From assembly GCA_000004695.1 (NCBI GenBank), contig CM000151.3:7072001-7136000 (forward strand): a DNA stretch of 64,000 nucleotides, given 5' to 3'. Origin of the DNA: Dictyostelium discoideum (Eukaryota). The notes under the pieces are model-generated. The model had not been told where the DNA came from and did no database searches. It was given only the letters and a program-made list of their open reading frames with translations. Position 1 is the first letter of the stretch, and every line of letters begins with the position of its first letter. Positions 1 through 50,771 of this stretch are shown piece by piece. Position numbers and translations under genes: made by a program.

Positions 1-163
1 AAAAATAAATAAAAATAAAAAAAAAAAAAATAATTAAAAATAAAAAATCTGGTAAAAAAAAAAAAACTATAAATATTTTTTTTTTTTTTTTTATATAAAG
101 CATTAAACAAATCGAAAAAAACTAAATTTTTAACTATAAAAAAAATTAAATTTAAAAAAAAAA

Positions 164-186
164 ATGTTAGCAAGTAAGTGTCTAAA

Positions 187-225
<39 letters not shown>

Positions 226-417
226 AATCTAACTTTATCCTTTTTTTAATTAGAATCATTAATCTTCTCTAAAAACTCATCAAAGGCAGACAAAATTTTT
301 TCAAATGATAAATTGACTGTTACTTCTTTTTCTTTAAATGCCACTTGCGAAAAAATTTCAGCTTCAACTACAACTTCTACCTCTATTTTTACAAGACCAA
401 ATTTCTTGAACTACTAA
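164..417 (+). CDS. micro-gene family copy A. Exon 1 at 164–173 (atgttagcaa|gtaagt), exon 2 at 254–417. Product is 57 aa: MLAKSLIFSKNSSKADKIFSNDKLTVTSFSLNATCEKISASTTTSTSIFTRPNFLNY.
   Basis: ATG plus 7 nt ends in phase 1, followed by a GTAAGT donor. An AT-rich intron ends in ...aattag, after which exon 2 stays open to TAA. The architecture and termini are shared with nine other copies. Confidence 0.55.
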
Positions 418-783
418 AAAAAATATATAAATAAACTAAATATATTGGCCGACTATAAATTTAAAATTCTAATTTTAATTGTTTGTTTGTTTTTTTTTTT
501 TAATAAATTTACCAATAATTTTATTAATTTAAATGATTTTATTAATTTAAATGATTTTCCTTTTAAAATTAAAAAAAAAACAATTTCATTTCTAATTAAT
601 TTTTTTTATTAATTTTTTTTTTTCAAACCCTCCATTACCTTTTACTAAAAAAAAAAAAAAAAAAAAATTATCTTATTTTGGTTTTAATATATGTACATGT
701 TTTTTTATTATTTATTTAAATATACAGTTTTTATATCAAGTATTTGTCGGCCTTGATATTTTATATTATTTTTTTATAAAATT

Positions 784-1031
784 TTAAAAATTTAAAAAAT
801 TTGGTCTTGTAAAAAAAGAAGTTGCGTTCTTAATTGAAACAATTTCATTTTTTGAAAAGTTATTTAAAGGTGTTTCACTATGGATACAGTTTAATGAAGA
901 TGAGTTTGTTTTGTTTGAAATTGAAATTAATGATTCTAAAATAATAATAAAAAAAAAATTAGAAATTATGTTTTGGAAAAAAGAAAAAAAATTGTTTTAA
1001 TATTCATTGCATTATACATACTTAATAACAT
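784..1031 (-). CDS. micro-gene family copy J. Exon 1 at 1031–1022 (atgttattaa|gtatgt), exon 2 at 935–784. Product: MLLKSLISISNKTNSSSLNCIHSETPLNNFSKNEIVSIKNATSFFTRPNFLNF.
   Basis: Reverse strand. Same exon and phase structure as the other copies, with the conserved exon-2 start aatcattaatttc and the C-terminus FFTRPNFLNF followed by a stop. Confidence 0.5.
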
Positions 1032-1555
1032 TTTATTATTTTTTTATATAGTTTTTTTATTTATTTCTAAATTTAGAATTTTTGTTTTATTTAAAATGAT
1101 TTTTTAATTAATAATGAATTATTTTTTTTAAACTATTTATATTTTTTTTTTTTTTTTAAGTAAAAGTATTCAAAAACCACTTTTATCTGTTAAATAATAA
1201 AATTTAAAAAATAATTGAACAGATGTTGTCGACATACACACACTCTCAATATAAAAATAGTGTTATCACAAACTTTAAAAGAAGTATGTGCGAATAGATT
1301 TTATTTAATATAGAATCATAAAACCAAAATGATATTTTTTATATATTGATTTTAAAAATAAAAAAAGCAATTTATTATTTTTAATAAATGAAGAAATAAA
1401 TTTAATTAATAAATAAATAATTTAAAAGGGTTGGTTTAAAAAATAAAATAATTATTTAATATGAACCAAAATTAAAAAATGAATTAATTTTGAATTTTTA
1501 TTGGAATAATTGAGTATACATATATTTTTAATTGAATATTAATAAAAGTGAAAAT

Positions 1556-1655
1556 NNNNNNNNNNNNNNNNNNNNNNNNNNNNNNNNNNNNNNNNNNNNN
1601 NNNNNNNNNNNNNNNNNNNNNNNNNNNNNNNNNNNNNNNNNNNNNNNNNNNNNNN
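1556..1655. other. assembly gap (100 N)
   Basis: Run of N characters; it lies inside the repetitive micro-gene cluster. Confidence 0.99.
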
Positions 1656-1789
1656 ATGTCATCATTTGTATTTTTAATTTATAGTGTCATTTTTAGATAT
1701 TCTTTTTTTTTTTTTTCAATTAAAACTGAAATTGTATGTTTATATATATCAGTGTTTTATTTGAAATAAAAAAATAATAATAATAAATG

Positions 1790-2257
1790 AAGTAAAAATA
1801 TTCAAACCACTTGTTGATGATATCCATTATTTAAGTAATCATTGTTGAAAACATATATTTGATATTGTTGTTGTCAAAAAAAAAATTAATATGATTTCAA
1901 CAAGATTAATAAAATAGTTTAAATTATATTATTATTCTTGTTGATATCATTATCCTTGTTTTTTTGTTTTTAAAAACAATTGTCTTTACTTGTATGTCAA
2001 CATAATATTTTTACAAAATTTAAACAATTAATAAAATTGTGTGTTTATTAAATAGTGGTGGTGGTAGGAAGTGGTTGGGGTGGGGTGGTGGGAAGTGGTT
2101 AAATTTTACTTAAAATAATTATTTCGATTTAAAAAATAAAATAGAATTTAAAAAAAAGTATAAATACTTTTTTTTAATTTTATTTTTTATATCAAACAAA
2201 CATTAAATTAAAAACAAAACAAAAACATTAATTAAAAACTATGAAACTATAAATAAA
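1790..2257 (+). promoter_or_regulatory. conserved promoter module of copy B: two TTGTTGATATC-type blocks (1808–1830, 1938–1950), a G-rich box (2055–2098), TATAAATA (2159–2166)
   Basis: The same elements occur in the same order upstream of copy E (5120–5583) and, mirrored, upstream of copy C (3190–3480). The G-rich box (GGTGGTGGTAGGAAGTGGTTGGGGTGGGGTGGTGGG) is highly unusual in DNA that is about 90% AT. Confidence 0.5.
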
Positions 2258-2497
2258 ATGTTATTCAGTATGTATTTTTAATAAAAAAAACAATGAAAAT
2301 ATCAATGAATATAATATTAATTTAATATTTTTTTTTTAAATTTAGAATCATTAATTTCATTATCAAATAAAAATACCACCTTAAATTCATCTTTAATTTC
2401 AAATCAAACAAACAATGATTGTAATGAATTTAAAAATGAAATTACAAACAAAAGTTCTACTGCATTCTTTACAAGACCAAACTTTGTAAACTATTAA
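2258..2497 (+). CDS. micro-gene family copy B. Exon 1 at 2258–2267 (atgttattca|gtatgt), exon 2 at 2346–2497. Product is 53 aa: MLFKSLISLSNKNTTLNSSLISNQTNNDCNEFKNEITNKSSTAFFTRPNFVNY.
   Basis: Canonical GTATGT donor, tttag acceptor, and an in-frame join. TATAAATA lies at about −99 and a G-rich box at about −200. Confidence 0.6.
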
Positions 2498-2584
2498 AAA
2501 AAAATATTATGATAAAAACAATTCCGATAAAAAACTTGTACAAACAATAAAATCTATTTATTTATTTATTTATTTATTTTAAAA

Positions 2585-2632
<48 letters not shown>

Positions 2633-2944
2633 CCTTGAGTGATTTTTAAAGTTGGTTTTAAATTAATTTTTTAAAACTATTGATTTTTTGATATTTTATC
2701 TTTATTAATATGTCTCCTTTGGATTTTATTATTTGCCCACTTTTTCATTTATAAAAGTAATTCGTTTTTTTATCAAATTTTACATAATTTTAAAATTTTT
2801 TTTTTTGTCAAACTTTTCCACAAATAAATAAAGAAAAAACAGAAAAATTATTTTTTAATTTTAAATAAATATATAAATATATTTTTTTTTTTAAATGTAC
2901 AATTTGTTTATCGGTATTAAAATTTTTTTTTTTTTTTTTTTTTT

Positions 2945-3189
2945 TTAATAGTTTATAAAGTTTGGTCTAGTAAAGAATGCAGTAGAACTTATGTTTGTAA
3001 TTTCATTTTTTAATTGATTACAATCATTGTTTGGTTGATAAGAAATTAAAGATGATTTTGAGGTGGTATTTTTATTTGATAATAAAATTAATGATTCTAA
3101 AAAAAAAAAAAAAAAATTCAAAATTAAAATCAACTTCATTATAATATATTTTTAATTATAATTTTTAAAATATACCTACTGAATAACAT
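2945..3189 (-). CDS. micro-gene family copy C. Exon 1 at 3189–3180 (atgttattca|gtaggt), exon 2 at 3096–2945. Product: MLFKSLILLSNKNTTSKSSLISYQPNNDCNQLKNEITNISSTAFFTRPNFINY.
   Basis: The ORF track (2945..3139, minus) covers exon 2. Exon 1 and its donor are found upstream on the minus strand. The promoter is a mirror image of the copy B promoter. Confidence 0.6.
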
Positions 3190-3480
3190 TTTTTATTTTT
3201 ATAGTTTTATATTTAGTTTTTTAAGATTTTATAATGTTAACTTTGTTCGATATAATAAATTAAAAAAAAAAAAAAGTATTTATACTGTTTTTTAAATCGA
3301 AATAATTAAGTAAAATTTAGATAAACACCCACAACCACCACCACTATAGCACATTTTTTTAAAAATTATGTAAAATGATTATGTTGATATACAAGTAAAC
3401 AGTAAAAAAAAAACAAGTATAATGATATCAACAAGAATAATAGTTTAATTTATTAACAACATTTTAAAAATATGTTTCCA
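3190..3480 (-). promoter_or_regulatory. conserved promoter module of copy C: TATAAATA at 3277–3286, a C-rich run on the plus strand (G-box in gene sense) at 3326–3345, ATGATATCAACAAG at 3422–3435
   Basis: It is the reverse complement of the copy B and copy E promoter architecture. Confidence 0.45.
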
Positions 3481-3705
3481 ACATCCATTTTTTTAAAAAA
3501 GGACTTAAAATTTTATTTAATTAATTAAAAAAATAATACAATAAAATTGTTTACAACAAAATTTAATTTTAATTTTTATGATTATTTAAAAAAGAAAAAA
3601 ATAAATGATAATTTGTAAAAAAAAAAATAAAAAATTAATTCTAATTATCTAGAATAATTTATTTTACAATAGTTTTTTTAATAAAAAAAGTTATTTGGTT
3701 GTTTT

Positions 3706-3745
<40 letters not shown>

Positions 3746-3948
3746 AAGCTAAATTGAATTATTTATTTAAAAACCTTTTTTGAACTAATTATAATAATAA
3801 AAATCAAAATAGCTAAACTATTTCACTCAAAAAAAAAAAAAAATGAAAATAATTTTTAAATTTTTTAAATAAATAAATAAATAGTTTTTTATTTGTACAA
3901 GTTTTTGTCGGCAATATAATTTTTTCAATAATTTTTTTAATAGTTTAC

Positions 3949-4085
3949 AAAGTTTGGTCTTGTAAAAAATGCAGTAGAACTTTTACTTGCAATTTCATTT
4001 TTGAATTCAATGCAATTATTATTTAATTGATTTGAAATTAATGATTTTGAGGTGGTGTTGTTATTTGATAATGAAATTAATGATT
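3949..4085 (-). CDS. micro-gene family copy D (partial). Exon 2 at 4085–3949 encodes ...SLISLSNNNTTSKSLISNQLNNNCIEFKNEIASKSSTAFFTRPNFVNY. Exon 1 is lost in the N gap.
   Basis: The exon-2 acceptor (ttag|aatcattaatttc) and the conserved C-terminus are present. Upstream sequence is the gap at 4130–4219. Confidence 0.45.
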
Positions 4086-4129
4086 CTAATAAATAAAAAA
4101 AAAAAAAAAAATAAGTATANNNNNNNNNN

Positions 4130-4219
4130 NNNNNNNNNNNNNNNNNNNNNNNNNNNNNNNNNNNNNNNNNNNNNNNNNNNNNNNNNNNNNNNNNNNNNNN
4201 NNNNNNNNNNNNNNNNNNN
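4130..4219. other. assembly gap (90 N)
   Basis: Run of N. The predicted exon 1 and promoter of micro-gene copy D would fall inside this gap. Confidence 0.99.
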
Positions 4220-5119
4220 ATAAATCATTTTATTTCATATTTATGTTTAAAATATGTACATGAAATCACAATAAACAAAACAACACCTATGTTTAATGAT
4301 TGTTTAAAAATTGTTGATTTAAGAAATGATTTGTATTGATTCTAATAAATTAAAATTTTAACCACAAAATAAAATCCTACCACAATTTATTCTTCCATTC
4401 CTTCTACTATACCCTAACCTATTTAATTATATATTCTAGAATTTGAATTTATTGTAAAATAGTGTTTATACTCCACCAACAAAAAGGATTTAAAAACTAT
4501 TTTAAAAATCATAAAGCTTTAAAACAAAATGTTTGAAATTATTATTTTAAAAGGTTTGGAAAAAAAAGAAAAGAAAAGAAAAAAGAAAATGATATTATTT
4601 ATTAAAAAGAAAAAAACAAAAAAACAAAAAAAGAAACAAACTAAATCAAAATAAACCAATTTAGAATATAATTAATTTCTTGTTTTTCTTTTTTTTTTCC
4701 AAACTTTTAAATTTAGAAAATAATTGATTTCTTGTTTTTCTTTTTTTTTTTAGAATCGCTGGTGTATTTATTTTTTTAATTATTTTATTTTTTGATTTTG
4801 TTTTAATTTATTTCTCTTTAATTTTACTTTTTTTTCGAGTTGCTGATAGCTATGCTATTTATTTTTATTTTATTTTACTTTTACCATTTCTCTTTTATTT
4901 TGTTCTTTTTTTTTTTTAATGAATTTTTTTTTTTTCATTGTTTTAAAAACTTTTAAAAATGAAAAAAAGTATAGGAAAAATGAGAATCATAAAAAACAGG
5001 ATGATGAATAAGTTTTGATCACTTATATTTTTTAAAATATAGTGCATTTTTACATGACATATTATTATATTTTTTAAATTTGAATTGAAAAATTATATAA
5101 ATGAAGAAAAAAAATGAAA

Positions 5120-5583
5120 ATTAATTAATGATGATATCAATTTTAAAACAATGATTGTTGAAAACATACAATATTTATGATTTTTATATGGTAGTTGAAG
5201 AAAATTATTGATTAAAAAAATTATTATCTATTAATAAAAAGGTTTTAAATTATATTATTATTCTTGTTGATATCATTTTGCTTGGCTTAATTTTATATTA
5301 ACATTTAACTTTACTTGTATGTCAACATAATATTTTTACAAATTTTAATTTATTTAATTTATTAAATAATTGTGTGTTTATTAAGTAGTGGTGGAGGGGG
5401 GTGGGTGGTTGTGAGTGTGTGATTAAATTAATTATAACTAAAAATTATTTCGATTTTAAAATTAAAAAAAAAAACAGTATAAATACTTTTTTTAATTTTA
5501 ATTTTTTATATCAAACAAAAATCATTAATTAAAAACTAAAGTTAAATAAATTAAAAACTATAAAAAAAAAATATATTTATAAA
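5120..5583 (+). promoter_or_regulatory. conserved promoter module of copy E: TTGTTGATATCAT at 5275–5287, G-rich box at 5387–5424, TATAAATA at 5479–5486
   Basis: It aligns with 1790–2257. The G-box variant is GTGGTGGAGGGGGGGTGGGTGGTTGTGAGTGTGTG. Confidence 0.5.
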
Positions 5584-5839
5584 ATGTTATTCAGTATGTA
5601 TTTTTTTTTTTATTTTTTTATTAGAATTATTTTTTAAAAATATCAATGAATTTAATATTAATTTAATATTTTTTTTTTTAAATTTAGAATCATTAATTTC
5701 ATTATCAAATAAAAATACCACCTTAAATTCATCTTTAATTTCAAATCAAACAAACAATGATTGTAATGAATTTAAAAATGAAATTACAAACAAAAGTTCT
5801 ACTGCATTCTTTACAAGACCAAACTTTGTAAACTATTAA
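5584..5839 (+). CDS. micro-gene family copy E. Exon 1 at 5584–5593, exon 2 at 5688–5839. The coding sequence is identical to copy B.
   Basis: Exon 2 matches B over all 152 nt. About 460 bp of upstream sequence is also highly similar to B (5120–5583 versus 1790–2257), which points to a recent duplication about 3.34 kb away. Confidence 0.6.
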
Positions 5840-6493
5840 AAAAAAAAATAATATGATATAAACAATGCCGATAAAAAACTTGTATATTTAATAAAAAAAA
5901 TTAATTATTTATTTATTTATTTATTTAAAAATAAAACCAAATTTTTTATTTTTTTATTTTTTTTTTTTTATTTTTTTTTTTATTTTTTTGAACATTTTCT
6001 ATCCTGACCCTGCAAATATAGCACCAAAAAAAAAAATTTAATTCAAAAAAAATAAATTTAAATAAAATTAAATGTTTTTTGAACTTCGTTTTTTTTTTTA
6101 TTTTATATAAATTTTTTTTTTTTTTGGGTACTTTTGTTCACTTTTTTCTTTTTATTTTTATACTTAAAATCTTTCAAAAAAAAAAGAAAAAACAAAAATT
6201 GATCAAATAATGAACTTAATATATTTCTTACCAAAAAATAAATAATAATAATAATAATAACGATAAAAATAATACTCAGTTCTTATTTTACATATGTAAC
6301 CTTTTTATTTTTTTAGATAATTTGTCATAATTATTATTTTTATTATTATTATTTAAAGTTTAAAAAAAAAAAAAGAAAAAAAAAAAAAATTTTAGTTTTT
6401 TTAATTAAGTTTTGTTTATTAATTTTAATTTATTTTACAAGTAAAGTTCGGCCATGTAAATTTATATATATATATAAAGTTTTTCGTTTTTTT

Positions 6494-6736
6494 TTAATAA
6501 TTTACAAAATTTGGTCTTGTGAAAAAGGCAGTTGGACTCTTCATTGTAATAGAATTATTTGTAGTACTAATTGAATTTATATTATTAGATTCAATTGAAC
6601 TTGATAATGATGATGAATTTTTGTTTGATAATGAAAGTAAAGATTCTATTTAAAAAAAAAAAAGTAAATTAATTAATACAATGACTTTAAAAATTTTTTT
6701 TTTTTTTTTTTTTTTTTTCAACTTACTGAATAACAT
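6494..6736 (-). CDS. micro-gene family copy F. Exon 1 at 6736–6727 (atgttattca|gtaagt), exon 2 at 6645–6494. Product: MLFKSLLSLSNKNSSSLSSSIESNNINSISTTNNSITMKSPTAFFTRPNFVNY.
   Basis: Reverse strand, same architecture. The promoter has TATAAATA at about −100, a G-run, and the GATGTTGTCGACATACA element. Confidence 0.55.
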
Positions 6737-6925
6737 TTTAAATTATAGTATATTAATATAGTTTTTATATTTGTTTTTTTATTTATTTAATTAATAAAAT
6801 TTTTTTTTAATGATTAAAATAATTTTTTTTTTTTTTATTTATACTTTTTTTTTTATTTTTAGTTTAAACATTTAATATAACCCCCAAAAAACCACTTAAT
6901 AACACTAATAACAAATTTGTAAAAT

Positions 6926-6946
6926 AGATGTTGTCGACATACATGT
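6926..6946. promoter_or_regulatory. conserved element GATGTTGTCGACATACA(T/C), followed by a CA run, about 190 bp upstream of minus-strand copy F. An identical element lies at 1218–1240, about 190 bp upstream of copy J.
   Basis: Two copies of an exact 17-mer containing a GTCGAC core, each flanked by (CA)n or ACACAC. Both sit at the same distance from the ATG of a minus-strand micro-gene. Confidence 0.4.
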
Positions 6947-7601
6947 GTTTTAAAAATTAAAAGGTTTTTTTGATAAACACACACACATTAAAAGAAGAGA
7001 TTTTATTATTTTAATTAAAAGATAATTTTAAAAAATGTAGATATGGTATCAACATCATTTTCTTTTTGACAAAAATAAAAATAATTATTTTAAATTTTAA
7101 TTTTTAATGATTATATAATTATTTACCCGCTCATTGATCACTATTTTTTTCCAAATAATTGTTATCATCATTTTTAAAATCAATTTTCTTCTTTTATAAG
7201 TTTTTTATTTTATTTTTATAATAATTTTAATTTTCTTAAGGAGTATTAATATGGATATAATAACAATATAATTGATTTTTAAAGTAAATCAAGTAAAATA
7301 AAAATAACAAAATTTCTTCATTTACTTTATTTATTTTAAAAATAAAAAGGTTTTTTATTTAATTTTAAAAAATTATAACATCATCCTTTTTTAAAATAAA
7401 AGAAGATAAAAATGATGAAATTATTTTATTATTTTTTACTTAATGATGTATTATCTTAGGGGACATCAAATTGAGAAAAAAAAAAAAAAATTATTTAAAT
7501 TAAAAATTTTATTCTTTTTTTTTTTTTTTTTTTTTTCTTTCCTTAAATTTATATAAAAACTTAAAAACTAGAACTTCTAAAAATAAATAAAAGAAATTAA
7601 A

Positions 7602-7843
7602 ATGCTATTTGGTATGTTAAAATTAATTTTATATAATTGGTTGATATTTATTTATTAATATTTTAAATTTTAGAATCAATTAAATTAAACATAAAAATAA
7701 ATAATTCTTTAAATGAATGTTCAAATTTATTAATTAGTGAAAATAATAAACATTCATTATATATTAATTCATTAAATACAATTACAACTAGAAATCAAAC
7801 TAGTAGCTTTTTTTTTTCTAGACCAAATTTCCAATGTTTTTAA
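7602..7843 (+). CDS. micro-gene family copy G (divergent). Exon 1 at 7602–7611 (atgctatttg|gtatgt), exon 2 at 7674–7843. Product is 60 aa: MLFESIKLNIKINNSLNECSNLLISENNKHSLYINSLNTITTRNQTSSFFFSRPNFQCF.
   Basis: Same exon and phase structure. The C-terminal motif is the variant FFFSRPNFQCF. Confidence 0.5.
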
Positions 7844-8309
7844 AAATAGATAACTAATTGTTAATTTACATTAAGAATAATTGTTCGAATAACTCAATAT
7901 TTAATTATTATTATGAATTAAATCATTTTTAATTTTAGAAAAAATAATAATTTATAAAAAAAATAGTAAAAATAAAAAATAAATTATTATTATTAAATTT
8001 CCAAAATCATACTTCATTTTTTTGATAATAACAATAATAATTATTTTGACAAAAAAAAAAAAAAAAAAATTGATAATTATTTCTTTTTGATAAACAAAAA
8101 TTAAAGTTGATATCAATAAATTTATTAGCCGGACAATTATTCAATATATTTTAAAAAATCAAATATCTAAAATATAAATCTTGATTTTAATAAATGTTGA
8201 TATCATACATATTATTTCTGCTTCTCATATAAATTTAAAAATAGCAACATATTCAATTTACAAATATATTTTATTTTTCAATCTATAGATTTATCAATTT
8301 TTTATTTTT

Positions 8310-8349
<40 letters not shown>

Positions 8350-8606
8350 ACCCATAGTAAAGAAGGGGTCAATTTTTAATTATCAAGTTATACGATTATT
8401 TCTATTTTAATTTTTATTTTATTTTTATTTTTATTTATTATTTTACTTTAATCAAAAAAAAAAAAAAAAAAAAAGTAAATATAAATAGTATTTTTTTTTT
8501 TTAAAAAAATAAATACTTAAAAATAAATCACAAATCAAAACATTAATTAATATAAATTATTAAAAAAAAAAAAAGAAAAATATTAAAAAAATAAATATAT
8601 TTTAAA

Positions 8607-8847
8607 ATGTTATTCAGTATGTATTTTAAATTAATTTTATTTCATTGTAAATTATAAATAATAAATATTAATTATTTTTATTTTTTTTTTTAAAATAGAA
8701 TCATTAATTTCATTATCAAACAATGTTTCAAAAGTTTCAACATTAATTTCAGTTGAAAACAATGAAAATTCTATAAATACTACAACAAATACTATAACAT
8801 TAAGAAGCACAGTCTTCTTTACAAGACCAAATTTTATTAATTATTAA
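8607..8847 (+). CDS. micro-gene family copy H. Exon 1 at 8607–8616, exon 2 at 8699–8847. Product: MLFKSLISLSNNVSKVSTLISVENNENSINTTTNTITLRSTVFFTRPNFINY.
   Basis: Exon 1 is atgttattca|gtatgt, the acceptor is aaaatag, and the conserved termini are present. Confidence 0.55.
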
Positions 8848-9016
8848 TTAAAAAAATAATTTATATATAAAAACAAAACATGGCCGAAATTTACATGTTT
8901 TAAAAAAAGTTAACGAAATAAAATCCTTTTGATTATAAAAAAAAAAATAAAAAAAAAAATTATATGTTTTCTTTGTATTTTTATTTTTTATTTTTTATTT
9001 TATTATTTTATTATTT

Positions 9017-12000
9017 TTAACTATCTTTTTTAAAAGTTAAAAATTTTTCAAAAGAAAATTTGTTTGTACCAAATATTGATAATAAAACTGGTAATAAGAC
9101 TAAACCATGAACAGCTGCTAATAAACAAATACTTATATACATTTTGAAATAGTATATGATAAAGATTTCTGATTTTGAAAAAGCTAAAACTACACAACCT
9201 AAAAGTTTTGTGATAAAGATACCACTAAATATGTTTGCACCCATTTCTGATATTGCAAATTTAACCTTTTCATCTCTTGAATAATGTTTTGGTGATCTGA
9301 TGAATGTACTTGCAATATGAACGCAAAATTCTATTGATATACCAACAGCCATAATTAAATTTACGACAGAGATTGCATTCAAAGATATATCCCATAATGT
9401 CATGACGGCCAAAAGGTCAACAACCGTCATACCAACACAAAGTACAACCAATATTGAAACCAATGGATTCATTAATATAGCTAGTGATACGAAAAATACA
9501 CTTCCCAATGCCAATAAAATACCTTTTAATGCCACTTGTTTTATGGTTAAATAAGCTTCAAAGTAACAATAGAAAATACTATAAGTGAAAACTTGAGCAT
9601 CTGAATGGTCAGCCAAATAATAACTTGTGGCAAGTGCATTGATGAAATCATTTTGAGTTCTTAGAGTTGTATGATAAGCATCGAAACGAGTTGCTGCAAT
9701 ACTACCATCACTATTGAATTTTACATCACCAGTATATGCTAAACCTGCCAATGGACATTGATCTGTATTTGTGAAATTTAAAAATGCAGGTAAATACTTT
9801 TTAAATAGTGATGGATCGGGTCTACCAGATTTTTCCAATGGGAAACATTGTTGATCACAACCAGGTTCATCACTATTACAATAGGTACCATTATCGAATG
9901 CTGTACAACAACCGACAGTATTACTCCATTGTAACATATCATCTAACCATGATGAAATTCCAGGTGAAATGAATGGTGCATTATCAAATGTATTTATAAC
10001 TGAATTATTATTACAACCACCTACTGTACAAAATTGATTTTGAATTGATGGTATGGAGAAATCATAATTTCCTTTTACAACTATATACATTGGTGGTCCA
10101 ACCTCTAAGAATTGATTCATATTTGTGAAATAAGCTTGAAGATAAGAGTTTCTTGGTAGTGCAACCTTTTGATCTAAACCAATTGGAATTTGATATGCAT
10201 AATTTATTGAAAACAATAACATTGCAATAAAGAATATTATAATTAATAATTTTGAAATTGGATGAACTAAAAATGGAGCATAATATTTTGTAAATAATTC
10301 CTTTAATAATGTTGTTTTCTTTTTTGATTTCTTTTTTAACATTCTCTTTTTTGATAATGGTGATGATTCTTCATTATTAATATTTAAACCATCAACAACA
10401 TTTAATGCATCAACATCATAATTAAAATTATGAGCATTATCATTTCTATCATCATCTTCACCATTAATTAAAAGTGGTTCATTTTCAATTTCTTCTTGAT
10501 TATTATTATTATTGTTATCATTGTTATTAAGATTATTATTATTATTATTATTATTACTATTTAATTGTTGATCAATATTATCAAATGGATCATCTTCTAA
10601 ATCTGAATTATCACCATTTAATGATAAGCATGGTAAACAATCAACTCTTCTTGATTGTAAACGTTTTGTATCTAAAACTAATAAACAAGCGAATGCACTA
10701 ATTTGTAATAGGAAGTCAAAGAAAACTGCAATTGAAGCATAGAATGAAAATGCTTTTACTGCTGGCATTTTAGTTAAGGAACCTAATAGGAAAGCAAATG
10801 ATTCACTTAATGATGCTAATGCAATTGATGGACCAACCTTTGCAAGTGTACGAGCAAATGATTCTTCTGGTGTTGGCATTTGATGATGATTTTGATTAAA
10901 ACCACTAATTGATGATGATGATGATGATGATGCAACATGTAAAGATTCAAAAGTATTTACTAAAATGAATATATTATCAACACCAATGGCTAACACTAAG
11001 AATGGTATAACTTCACTAATGATTAGAGTTGCTTTTATACGTAGAATTGAACAAATACCAACAGAGATTATAATTGAACATGCAACTATACAAATACCAG
11101 ATAGACCCAATGCAAATCTTGAACGAATGAAAAATGAATTGAATCTTCTTGGAAATGGGTAATAACTACCTAAACTAAGGGAGATATATAAAAACATAAC
11201 GAAATAACTAACGATAATCGTTGGTATATCTGCATTACCTTCTCTTGCCAATTCATCTTGTACTGATCTTTGAGCATTGAATGATATTTCGAATGGACAT
11301 GAAGGATCATTTGAAATCTCTTGAATTTTATTTAACCAAACTTGTTCCCACATCATTGATCTATCAATCATTGAATCTGGATTATTCAATAGGAAAGTGG
11401 TGACAAATGCTTTTGCCAACGTTGAATTATCATTCCAACCACCCAATACTATCTTTGGATTTACAGGTACACCAGTTGAATCCATACATTCTGGTGAAAG
11501 TAATTGTGATTTACATTGTTCAAACCAACCAATTACATTATCCTTTTGTTGATTTAATTTATTTTGATCACGTTGAAAAATACCTGTTATACTCTCAACC
11601 AAACAACCACGTTTAGTAGGTTCAAAACATAATTGATCCAATGTTATAATCCTATTTGAACCATCATTAAGCTTTACACTTGTATTCTTCATTAGTTGTG
11701 TCTCTATATCAATTAATGATTTAAATAAATCATAATTGAAAATCGTTGATAAATTCTTTTGTTTTGGTATTAAAATTAATTGTTCAACACGATAGAATGG
11801 ACCGAAATGATCATCGAAATATTGTTTCTCAATTGCTGATCTACTATCTGGTGATACCCATAATTTTACTGGATCAGTTTCAATCTCTAATGAAATAATA
11901 CCAATACCAATACCAATTGTAAATAGTAAACAACATATTAAAACTATTATTGGTCTTTTTGTAATATTAATTCCATACCAATAAAATACTTTTTGAAAAA

Positions 12001-13437
12001 TATTTGAATAATTGCTACCACTATTATTGTTATTATTTCTATTATTATTGGTATTTTGAATTTCATCATTATTAACTTGTTGATTAATTATACCACCACT
12101 AATACCAAGTATTCTTCTTGAATTTCTATTTGAAGCTGTTTTATCAACAATTATACAAGCTAAAATTACTATTGATAATAACAATAATGTTATCATTATA
12201 TAAATGGATACACCCATTGCAAATGAACAATTCCATTCTTTTCCATCATCTAATTTCCACATACAACTTGCTGTTTTACCATCTATCATTTGATGAGTAG
12301 TTACAAATGGTATCAATACTGTACAAATGAATAAAATACCCAATATTATCATCATTACTGTTTTAAACTTTTTACCCTTAAAATATCTAATCTTTGATGA
12401 ATATTTAAATATTAACCAAATGCTAAATCCAAATAATAATGATAATAAAAATAATAAAAATGACCAAACTATCCAAATTGTTAAATGTGGTACTCTTAAA
12501 AAAAAAAAAAAAAAAAAACCAAAATATTAATATATATATTTAAAATATATAATAAATAATAATAATAATATTATAAATTTACTTACTCTATTAATAAATG
12601 AGTTTGAATGATTGTATCATTTAATAAACCAATATCTTTATAGGAAGGGGGAGGTAAACAAGCATCACGACATTGATCACAAGAACAACCTTCAGAACAT
12701 GGTACGATTGCATCATTATAACCTTCATTATTAAAAACCCAATTTAATTCTTTGAATGTTGGATTCACTGCAGAGAAAACACCAGTGAAGAACAATTGTG
12801 CAGTTGGAAACATTACACCAAATGGTTGAGCACCATTGGCATGTACATCTCTACATGAATTATATAAACCATTGGCGAAATCTGGATGTAAAACGAAATC
12901 GATGCTAATGATTTGGTCAGTTTTATTATCAACTTTAGTTGGTACCATAAATGATTTCTGATAGGGTGAACATGACGATGCACACCATAGATTATAAAGA
13001 TTAACCATACAACTACTACATCTACCAAATATACCACCCGCTACCAACATATTGGTTTGTAAGATTAAAGTTTGATTATAATTACAACATGATTCAATTG
13101 AATATTCTGGATGTGTTAATTGACATGTATTTGGTGCGATTTCCGTATTATTCTGAAATTTTAATATTAAAAAAAAAAAAATAATAAAAACATAAAAAAT
13201 AAAAAAAAAAAAAAAATAAAAAAAAAAAATAATTAATTTTTCATAGAAAATAAATATTTTTATTTTTATTAATAATAAAAAACTTACTAATGGTGGAAAA
13301 TCTTTTGCTTCAACAAATGAAGATGAAACGCCATACATTGAACAACCTAATGTTGTATTATAAGGGTAAGGTGATTGACATTGTATTATATTTATAATCG
13401 ATAAAAAAAAGATTAAAAAAACTATTATTTTATTCAT
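9017..13437 (-). CDS. Niemann-Pick C1-like protein (NPC1/Patched family with sterol-sensing domain), about 1,397 aa. Exons at about 13437–13288, 13152–12587 and 12494–9017.
   Basis: The N-terminal Cys-rich NPC1 NTD motif CCNYNQTLILQTNMLVAGGIFGRCSSCMVNLYNLWCASSCSPYQKSF is present. The SSD segment GLSGICIVACSIIISVGICSILRIKATLIISEVIPFLVLAIGVDNIFIL is present. There are 13 predicted TM helices and a signal peptide. Donors are GTAAGT, the acceptors are tttcag and tttaag, and the phases are consistent (0, 2). Confidence 0.8.
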
Positions 13438-14305
13438 ATTGAATGAATTTTATTTTTATTTTATTATTTTAAAATTATTATTATTATTCTATTTCATTAA
13501 AATAAAAATTTATTTTTTATATTTTTTTTTTTTTTTTTATTTTTTATTTTATTTTTTTTTTTAGTGTGTGTGATTGGCAATTATTATTTATTTATTTTTT
13601 TCAACCTACAAAAAAAATTAATTATTGAAGGTATTGAAATTTTATTATAATAAATGAATTGGAACACTAGGATGTAATAATTGGTAAATAAAAAATAAAA
13701 AAAAAAATAAAAAAATTAATATAATAAATAAAAAAAAAAATAAAAAAAAAAAATAAAAAAAAAAAAAAATAAAAAAAACCAATATTATTTGAACAACCCC
13801 ACAACACACAAAAATTTTGCATTAAACAACGGGTGTTTATTTTTAGTAATAATAAAAAAAATAATAAAAAAAATTAAAAAAATTAAAAAAAAAAAAATAT
13901 TTCTATATATATTTTCAATCATTTGAAATATATTGAATTCATCCTAATTTGATTATTATTTAAATCATGTCCGAAATATAGACATATGGTATTTGGAATA
14001 ATGGTTTTTTTTTTTTTTTTTTTTTTTGAGATATTTTGATTATAATATAAAAAAAAAAAAGTGAAGTTTCAAAAAAAAGATTTTTTGTTGGCTTGGAGAG
14101 ATTGAAAAAAAAAAAAGAAGATTTTTTTTTTTTTAAGAAATAATTTTTTAAGAAATAATTTTTTCATTAGAAAAAGAATTAATTAAAAAAAATTGGAAAC
14201 AGAGATAAATTCTGAATACTAATACTAATATTTTCAATATTTAAGAATCTAAATTTGGATTTGATTTTTTTATTTTTGAAAAGTTTTGTTTTTATTTTCT
14301 AGCCG

Positions 14306-14338
<33 letters not shown>

Positions 14339-14502
14339 TTCTTTAGTTTTCAAGAAAATATCTGTTGTTTTTTTTTCTTCATTTTTTAAAAATTTTACGA
14401 ATAACAACTCTTAAGAAATTTTAATTTTTTTTTTTTTTTTTCTGTACAAAAAATAAAGAAATTTTTTTTTTTTTTAAATTAAAAAATTTCTAAACTCAAA
14501 CA

Positions 14503-16710
<2,208 letters not shown>

Positions 16711-28520: not shown

Positions 28521-28695
28521 TAATTGTTTTGTTGGGAATTTCATTATTGTTTGAATTTATTTTTGATCTTTCCATAGTAATTTTAAGTGAAAAAATAAAC
28601 GATTCTATTATTTATTATTTTAAATATAAATATTAGTTTTTTTATTTTTTTTATTTAATTCTATTCTCTAATATATAAAACTTACTAAATATCAT
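28465..28695 (-). CDS. micro-gene family copy I (dispersed copy). Exon 1 at 28695–28686 (atgatattta|gtaagt), exon 2 at 28604–28465. Product: MIFKSFIFSLKITMERSKINSNNNEIPNKTINCISLKSCTFTRPNFLNF.
   Basis: Same architecture about 20 kb from the main cluster. It is embedded in a ~470-bp tandem duplication whose first unit at 27940–28000 carries only a truncated relic. Confidence 0.45.
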
Positions 28696-50698: not shown

Positions 50699-50771
50699 GG
50701 GGATGTAGCTCAGATGGTAGAGCGCTCGCTTAGCATGCGAGAGGTAAAGGGATCGATACCCTTCTTCTCCA
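50699..50771 (+). tRNA. tRNA-Ala (anticodon AGC), 73 nt
   Basis: Cloverleaf read by hand: acceptor GGGGATG/CTTCTCC with the G3:U70 Ala identity pair. D-arm GCTC-AGATGGTA-GAGC (A box TAGCTCAGATGG). Anticodon stem CTCGC/GCGAG with loop TTAGCAT. T-arm AAGGG-ATCGATA-CCCTT (B box GGATCGATACC). One T:T mismatch at positions 6:67 and the non-canonical T-loop mean it could be a variant or a pseudogene. Confidence 0.7.

Follow-up and report, generated by a model that had tools for sequence, protein, structure and literature searches.

The stretch of DNA analysed here (the window, 64,000 nt) covers positions 7,072,001 to 7,136,000 of chromosome 2 of Dictyostelium discoideum AX4 (GenBank assembly GCA_000004695.1, contig CM000151.3), so that a window position equals the chromosome 2 position minus 7,072,000, and has a G+C content of 22%. 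Its left end is occupied by a cluster of small genes belonging to a single family, four of which (B, C, D, and E) are embedded in longer direct and inverted repeats interrupted by assembly gaps. A preliminary description, made from the sequence alone, had taken these repeats as the mark of a cluster that is still expanding by segmental duplication and inversion. The present study characterised the genes and their repeat units, compared them with other Dictyostelium assemblies, and weighed the histories that could have produced them; the paralogues are probably old and under concerted evolution, with a short and recent gene conversion from E into B.

Scanning the window for the conserved C-terminal codons located ten visible copies of the family, nine within 1–8850 and one at 28695–28465, and a further cluster member (x) is concealed by the first of two assembly gaps. 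The genes share a simple layout, comprising a first exon of 10 nt (ATGTTATTCA), an intron of 62–94 nt, and a second exon of about 150 nt. The encoded protein of about 53 aa has the conserved N-terminus MLFKSLISLSN and the C-terminus FFTRPNF-x-N-Y/F; both termini are invariant, the middle being the variable part. Seven models in the cluster, together with the lone copy, match annotated AX4 hypothetical proteins exactly. A 90%-identity cluster member and the adjacent NPC1-like gene DDB_G0276657 gave access to other assemblies, and the comparison set comprised D. firmibasis (L001), D. citrinum (L002), three assemblies labelled D. discoideum or D. cf. discoideum (L003, L005, and L006), a further assembly with a gap-free contig of 4.9 Mb (L004; GCA_054883475.1), and a 'D. 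cf. discoideum' isolate (L007; GCA_054859235.1).

Gene B (DDB_G0276613; 2258–2497, + strand) consists of exon 1 at 2258–2267, with the ATG at 2258, an intron at 2268–2345, and exon 2 at 2346–2497, with the stop at 2497. Its product of 53 aa, MLFKSLISLSNKNTTLNSSLISNQTNNDCNEFKNEITNKSSTAFFTRPNFVNY, is recorded as an exact protein under both DDB_G0276613 and DDB_G0276707, the latter being gene E (5584–5839, + strand; exon 1 at 5584–5593, intron at 5594–5687, exon 2 at 5688–5839), whose protein is identical to that of B. Gene C (2945–3189, − strand) runs from an ATG at 3189 to a stop at 2945 through exon 1 (3189–3180), an intron (3179–3097), and exon 2 (3096–2945), and the same gene model is read in L004. 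With its ATG, a GTAGGT donor, an AG acceptor, and an open second exon, C is apparently intact at the sequence level; its product, MLFKSLILLSNKNTTSKSSLISYQPNNDCNQLKNEITNISSTAFFTRPNFINY, found no match by exact look-up in the protein collection searched, and the gene may be unannotated in AX4. For gene D (− strand), exon 2 lies at 4085–3937 and exon 1 falls in an N run, the whole gene (MLFKSLISLSNNNTTSKSLISNQLNNNCIEFKNEIASKSSTAFFTRPNFVNY) being read in L004.

The remaining visible members were established by gene model and exact protein match: A (DDB_G0276637; 164–417, +), A2 (DDB_G0276635; 784–1031, −), F (DDB_G0276651; 6494–6736, −, convergent with E), G (DDB_G0276653; 7602–7843, +), and H (DDB_G0276655; 8607–8847, +). 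The solitary member DDB_G0276669 (28465–28695, −; MIFKSFIFSLKITMERSK…FTRPNFLNF) is more divergent and lies about 20 kb off the cluster. On the other side, three more family members upstream of A in L003 (241–2099) indicate that the cluster runs past the left edge of the window.

Repeats were identified by gapped self-BLAST of window positions 1–10000, with ten dinucleotide shuffles of the same interval as control. This self-comparison contains the inverted match between B and C that the preliminary description had proposed, promoter included, for 1790–2500 and 3480–2945: positions 1920–2613 align with 3452–2822 at 74.8% identity over 710 columns and 456 bits, against best shuffle scores of 46–61 bits. 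The ungapped core measures 198 nt at 89%, exon 2 is identical at 141/152 positions, the promoter-only alignment reaches z = 31 against shuffles, and homology can be followed by eye to about 1840/3490. Repeat unit C, an inverted copy of B, therefore occupies 2822–3452 on the − strand, with weaker homology to about 3490. The two stop codons are 447 bp apart, in agreement with the separation of about 450 bp given earlier for the arms, but homology passes each stop by about 115 nt and the unique AT-rich centre between the alignment ends is only about 208 bp (2614–2821). The segment between the stops (2498–2944) has a G+C content of 12%. Long homopolymers occur in the 3′ flanks and intergenic DNA of the cluster (A44 at 184–227, T45 at 2588–2632, T43 at 3702–3744, and A34 at 8313–8346).

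Folding of 2300–3140 as a single strand yields a long imperfect hairpin (−189 kcal/mol, z = −17.8), as is bound to happen with any inverted repeat. Inverted-repeat fragility requires near-identical arms and short spacers, and the B/C pair has neither. With 75% identity between the arms, no exact complementarity longer than 24 bp, and a centre of 208–447 bp, the pair is a poor substrate for recombination or cruciform formation. This, together with an arrangement that is stable across species (see below), speaks against the earlier suggestion that the quasi-palindrome is a site of instability. A transposable element with terminal inverted repeats was also considered and rejected, each arm being a whole promoter plus gene and no reading frame being visible by eye in 2498–2944.

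The direct match between B and E is longer and more uneven. Repeat unit B (1759–2632, +), comprising promoter, two-exon gene, and proximal 3′ flank, is homologous to units E, C, and D, and aligns with unit E (5078–5986, +), which repeats B in direct and C and D in inverted orientation, at 79.5% identity over 938 columns (93 of them gap columns; 762 bits), with an offset of 3342 bp. Identity is complete in exon 1 (10/10) and exon 2 (152/152) and falls to 65/76 in the intron and 150/182 in the 3′ flank; the 450-nt promoters agree at 358/407 aligned columns, equal to 80% of their length, with 12% mismatches and 43–50 gap columns. The longest exact match is a tract of 177 bp (2328–2504 in B, 5670–5846 in E, both +) made up of the last 18 nt of the intron, the whole of exon 2, and 7 nt of 3′ UTR. 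The preliminary description of E as a near-identical direct duplicate of B, promoter included, some 3.34 kb away thus holds for the orientation, the spacing, the exons, and this tract, and fails for the promoters and for the unit as a whole.

Unit D is visible at 3829–4119 (−; exon 2, part of the intron, and 3′ flank), where it matches B and E at 81–83% by BLAST, and, as noted earlier, D (−) and E (+) are divergent with an N run (4120–4219) between them. Once the gaps are filled there are four repeat units of 0.7–0.9 kb in the order B→ ←C ←D E→, forming a tail-to-tail inverted repeat (B/C), a direct repeat (B/E), and a head-to-head inverted repeat (D/E) half concealed in the second gap. In the gap-filled L004 sequence the pairwise matches score 760 bits for B/E, 655 for D/E, 572 for B/D, 456 for B/C, 436 for C/E, and 358 for C/D.

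Two runs of 100 N in the cluster, one of them inside a repeat copy, raise the question whether the gapped Sanger assembly of AX4 chromosome 2 contains a mis-join or collapsed reads. The independent L004 contig answers it, being 99.4–99.8% identical to the window, colinear with it in three blocks at 98.9–99.8%, and filling both gaps (window 1657–4119 corresponds to reverse-complement L004 positions 2086–4535, and window 4220–14000 to 5197–14984). All ten genes (A, A2, x, B, C, D, E, F, G, and H) recur there with order and orientation unchanged, and the L004 units B and E show 0 differences from AX4. Since a gap-free contig reproduces order, orientation, and sequence, a mis-join is excluded, and three more assemblies (L003, L005, and L006) agree on the order; an artefact that would account for the repeats is hardly credible. 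The differences between AX4 and L004 are mostly indels, which we suspect to be differences in homopolymer length.

The true content of gap 1 (1556–1655; chromosome 2 7,073,556–7,073,655) is 607 bp (reverse-complement L004 1479–2085) of unique DNA with a G+C content of 16%, carrying gene x on the minus strand. The product of x is MFKIITSIHLHNSIDLKNFNSNLNINPSFNNNKITLKSVSSFFTRPNFVNF, its first exon has 7 nt rather than 10, and an orthologue occurs at the same spot in L003, L005, L006, D. citrinum, and D. firmibasis. Gap 2 (4120–4219; chromosome 2 7,076,120–7,076,219) stands for 661 bp in L004, holding the remaining D intron, D exon 1, and the D promoter. The latter brings the copies of the promoter repeat to four and lies in the opposite orientation to that of E. 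In the filled sequence the D/E inverted match is 77.6% identical, and in L003 the corresponding segment matches the E promoter at about 83%. The proposal that the repeats explain the N gaps is therefore reasonable for gap 2, which lies inside a repeat copy, and not for gap 1, whose fill is unique.

The age of the arrangement can be read from the neighbouring assemblies. The cluster is bounded on its right by the NPC1/Patched-like gene DDB_G0276657 (9017–13437, −), whose orthologues match the Pfam families NPC1_N, Patched, and Sterol-sensing, and which served both as synteny anchor and as yardstick of divergence: it differs from AX4 by 2.0% in L003, 8% in D. citrinum, and 10–12% in D. firmibasis. 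All four D. discoideum-clade assemblies L003–L006 share the gene order A, A2, x, B, C, D, E, F, G, H. In D. citrinum and D. firmibasis the cluster adjoins the same NPC1-like gene and comprises a, a2, x, a convergent b/c pair, and then b'/f, g, and h, D being absent from both and confined to the D. discoideum clade. Measured from stop to stop, the genes of the convergent pair lie 447 bp apart in AX4 and D. firmibasis, 455 bp in L003, and 881 bp in D. citrinum. Synteny thus points to a convergent pair at this position that is older than the split from D. firmibasis.

The spacer between the D. firmibasis b and c genes (L001 10247–10693) is itself palindromic over all 447 bp, scoring 173 against its own reverse complement compared with 49 ± 8 for shuffles. 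When the AX4 spacer is aligned with it, the reverse-complement alignment is full-length (score 142), and the same-orientation alignment covers 110 nt (score 125). A flip of the spacer through recombination between the arms could produce this pattern, although the palindromic nature of the D. firmibasis spacer has to be borne in mind.

Promoter trees refine this picture. The C promoter groups with that of D. firmibasis c (97–98% bootstrap), and the B, D, and E promoters form a clade specific to D. discoideum (100%), within which D is sister to E (94%). Their branching suggests that these three promoters share an origin on the stem lineage of D. discoideum; an origin of B and E before the D. citrinum split, initially indicated by alignment scores, was discarded in favour of these trees.

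The units share promoter, gene, and 3′ flank in both orientations, so they did arise by duplication and inversion, as the preliminary description held, and a whole-unit duplication must have taken place at some time. Had this been recent, with a unit of about 0.9 kb copied 3.3 kb away, another copy inverted, and the cluster still expanding, the D. discoideum-specific promoter clade would be readily understood, and a truly recent tandem copy does exist in D. citrinum, where the b/f pair has been duplicated (L002 6189–8100 and 9246–11450), with 432/443 identical promoter positions and 153/155 identical exon 2 positions between b2 and b3. For B and E, and for B and C, however, such a history is very unlikely. 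Identity within the B/E unit is uneven, complete in exon 2 and broken by mismatches and indels in the promoter; the two promoters are equally diverged in all four D. discoideum-clade assemblies, differing at 10–15% of aligned bases in every one of them, against 2–4% between orthologous promoters (L003, L005, and L006 versus AX4, for both B and E). The B/E identity is accordingly better described as a short conversion tract within diverged units than as a recent segmental copy.

Nor do the isolates differ in copy number: B, C, D, and E are present throughout L003–L006, which, with the conserved order and the convergent pair of D. citrinum and D. firmibasis, contradicts the notion of an expanding cluster. 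The units therefore arose long ago and their number is stable in the D. discoideum clade. Lineage-specific change does occur, in the form of D itself, the D. citrinum b/f duplication, and two further events. In L003 only, 453 bp between two A-rich tracts have been deleted (L003 7370–7394 versus window 3131–3583), taking exon 1 and promoter of C and leaving a truncated pseudogene; L005 and L006 retain the segment. In L007 (17754–22019), an LTR retrotransposon with a 1421-aa ORF encoding gag-protease/RT/RNaseH/integrase lies between the E 3′ flank and F.

The histories of promoter and exon disagree, a discordance that is observed in the assemblies themselves, as are the anatomy and the conserved order of the cluster. 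In the tree built from promoters, all the B copies group together, as do all the E copies (100% bootstrap for each clade), whereas the exon 2 tree has no B/E split and pairs AX4 B with AX4 E (90%). Differences between B and E in the 152 nt of exon 2 number 0 in AX4 and L004, 2 in L005, 4 in L003, and 7 in L006. Orthologue comparisons put the rate of exon 2 evolution at 0.62 times that of the promoter, from which 10–14 B/E differences are predicted; the Poisson probabilities of the observed 0, 2, 4, and 7 are 1.2e-5, 0.003, 0.007, and 0.03, the AX4 value resting on 11.3 differences expected. An identical run of at least 177 columns was obtained in 0 of 200,000 permutations.

The limits of the exchanged segment emerge from a four-way alignment, in which AX4 B follows L003 B to about 2293, is then E-like through exon 2 and the first 30–50 nt of the 3′ UTR, and is B-type again (gtacaaac…) by 2548. 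In trees built from the first 45–120 nt of 3′ flank, AX4 B likewise falls with the E copies and not with L003 B (89–94% bootstrap). An E-to-B tract would thus begin between 2293 and 2328 and end between 2525 and 2547, with 2328–2504 as its core. In addition, exon 2 site 63 (codon 25; window 2408 and 5750) is A, giving ACA, in both B and E of AX4 and L004 only. Among the D. discoideum-clade copies this codon is ACA (Thr), TCA (Ser), or CCA (Pro), mixed over B, E, and C by isolate, a pattern that suggests exchange between paralogues or a mutable site.

Selection alone might be thought sufficient, the copies being old and their second exons identical because every change is deleterious. The ratio dN/dS is 0.12–0.65 across 14 orthologous pairs of family genes, values below 1 that mark these as real coding genes, and the N- and C-termini are invariant. 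The identity, however, takes in synonymous positions as well as 18 nt of intron and 7 nt of 3′ UTR, along with the middle of the protein, where the family varies; between assemblies, orthologous second exons differ at 1–6 of 152 nt. Selection would likewise leave the base that only the AX4 lineage has in both paralogues, and the E-like proximal 3′ flank of AX4 B, without explanation. We regard constraint without exchange as unlikely.

Exchange is also suggested elsewhere in the cluster. The inverted copies b and c of D. firmibasis agree at 146/150 positions of exon 2 and 325/384 of the promoter, and D. citrinum f1 is chimeric, with a B-type promoter and an F-type coding region. In AX4, dS between B and C is 0.067, compared with about 0.26–0.32 between C and its D. 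citrinum and D. firmibasis counterparts (few sites), which hints at an older exchange between the inverted copies as well.

Taken together, the discordant trees, the excessive similarity of exon 2, the derived base common to both paralogues, and the E-like flank argue for repeated ectopic conversion of the coding part. We consider it probable, at roughly 0.8, that the copies are old paralogues evolving in concert and that E recently converted about 200–250 bp of B in the AX4 lineage. Both the break-repair mechanism and the direction of conversion are what we infer from this pattern. A DNA break would be repaired with a paralogue as template, and such non-allelic conversion would time and again replace a segment reaching from the 3′ part of the intron through exon 2 into the beginning of the 3′ UTR, leaving promoters and distal flanks to go on diverging. 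The latest event would have copied about 200–250 bp from E to B in the AX4 lineage, yielding the identical tract of 177 bp.

Several points weigh against this interpretation. Exon 2 has only 152 nt, so that counts are small and the neighbour-joining bootstrap values rest on few sites, and purifying selection adds to exon similarity, for which the rate calibration corrects only roughly. Locus tags and accession numbering suggest that L003–L007 are the Nanopore+Illumina assemblies of Holland et al. (2025; PMC12745789), and short-read polishing of L004 could exaggerate the B/E identity if reads were mis-mapped between the two genes. Finally, B occupies the position of D. citrinum b1 and D. firmibasis b, yet its promoter groups with that of E, and reconciling the two requires a further conversion, older and longer, or a replacement.

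The promoters of the repeat carry a G-rich box that is conspicuous against a genome of 22% G+C. The box of B (2055–2100, +) lies about 160–205 nt upstream of the ATG and has 25 G and 0 C in 40 nt; that of E is at 5386–5421 (+) and that of C at 3326–3347 (−), the G-richest 40-nt window of the C promoter (14 G) being at −176 from the ATG. In the three species, every promoter of this repeat type has such a box, lying about 160–230 nt upstream of the ATG and at a fixed distance upstream of this codon and the TATA box. Two of them have been described as p12 (chromosome 2 7074056–7074075, promoter of DDB_G0276613; window 2056–2075, within the B box) and p14 (7077389–7077409, promoter of DDB_G0276707; window 5389–5409, within the E box), which fold as G-quadruplexes (G4) in vitro and were treated as two separate hits (Saad et al., 2019; PMC6511855). 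The published coordinates of the two set the offset of 7,072,000 between window and chromosome. In fact, p12 and p14 are paralogous copies of one conserved promoter element. As part of a quite improbable reading of the family (see below), the G4-forming boxes could act either as shared developmental control elements or as break-prone sites at which conversion starts. Boxes of this kind may also be linked to regulation by the G-box-binding factor of Dictyostelium. A separate conserved motif, GATGTTGTCGACATACA, followed by a CA/GT-rich stretch (1222–1238 and 6927–6943), is shared by the promoters of the minus-strand genes A2 and F, which align weakly over about 600 bp (647–1238 versus 6369–6943, 66.8%), and represents a second promoter type inside the cluster.

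As to the proteins, six family members tested against Pfam matched no family at E ≤ 10, and a profile search of 1.84 billion proteins returned only 17 family representatives, nearly all of about 50–56 aa (full range about 41–101 aa) and all ending in an FTRPNF-type motif. The AF2 model is unstructured (pLDDT 63, pTM 0.14), and a literature search on the family gene identifiers turned up only the G4 paper (PMC6511855). The family is an uncharacterised orphan restricted to Dictyostelium. One conceivable role is that of a rapidly diversifying group-4 Dictyostelium family, for example of precursors of signalling or recognition peptides, in which conversion among direct and inverted copies would shuffle variants between paralogues as well as make them uniform; the three alleles of codon 25 over both B and E in different isolates are a hint in this direction, and we hold the idea to be quite improbable. 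The HssA/2C/7E family, whose genes are likewise small, clustered, and Dictyostelium-specific and whose proteins have a vaguely similar Ser-rich N-terminus, may be comparable. Beyond the family, the window includes a tRNA-Ala (AGC) gene at 50699–50771 (+).

In practical terms, the quasi-palindrome and the supposed identical duplicate amount to an old, stable paralogue cluster with a short and probably recent conversion tract, not to a hot spot of ongoing expansion or an assembly error. The gaps of the AX4 reference can be filled with 607 bp and 661 bp, and three genes are affected, namely x (whole, in gap 1), D (exon 1 and promoter, in gap 2), and C (without a protein match). The family itself is open to follow-up as an uncharacterised orphan.

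Among known systems, the two inverted arms of about 0.7 kb and their long imperfect hairpin recall inverted Alu pairs in yeast and palindromic AT-rich repeats, from which the B/C pair differs in the many indels between its 75%-identical arms, its centre of 208–447 bp, and its stability across species. The promoter boxes resemble the G-box/GT-rich elements of Dictyostelium, those of B and E being p12 and p14, with G4 formation in vitro (PMC6511855). The closest parallel lies with the globin, histone, and heat-shock gene pairs, in which concerted evolution by ectopic conversion includes inverted pairs, and whose clustered paralogues in direct and inverted orientation are matched here. The genes of the present cluster are unlike those examples in being tiny (240–260 bp with one intron) and of uncharacterised function, and, unlike in systems where it has been observed, conversion is here deduced from five assemblies, its tract length (about 0.2 kb) and direction being estimates. 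As in other families evolving in concert, identity is concentrated in a short tract with sharp limits around the coding region, the flanks diverging, paralogues within a lineage are closer than orthologues, and flank and coding trees disagree. The cluster is in this respect an ordinary old clustered gene family showing concerted evolution and, with no pointer to an unusual mechanism, a new example of a well-known process in an orphan family.

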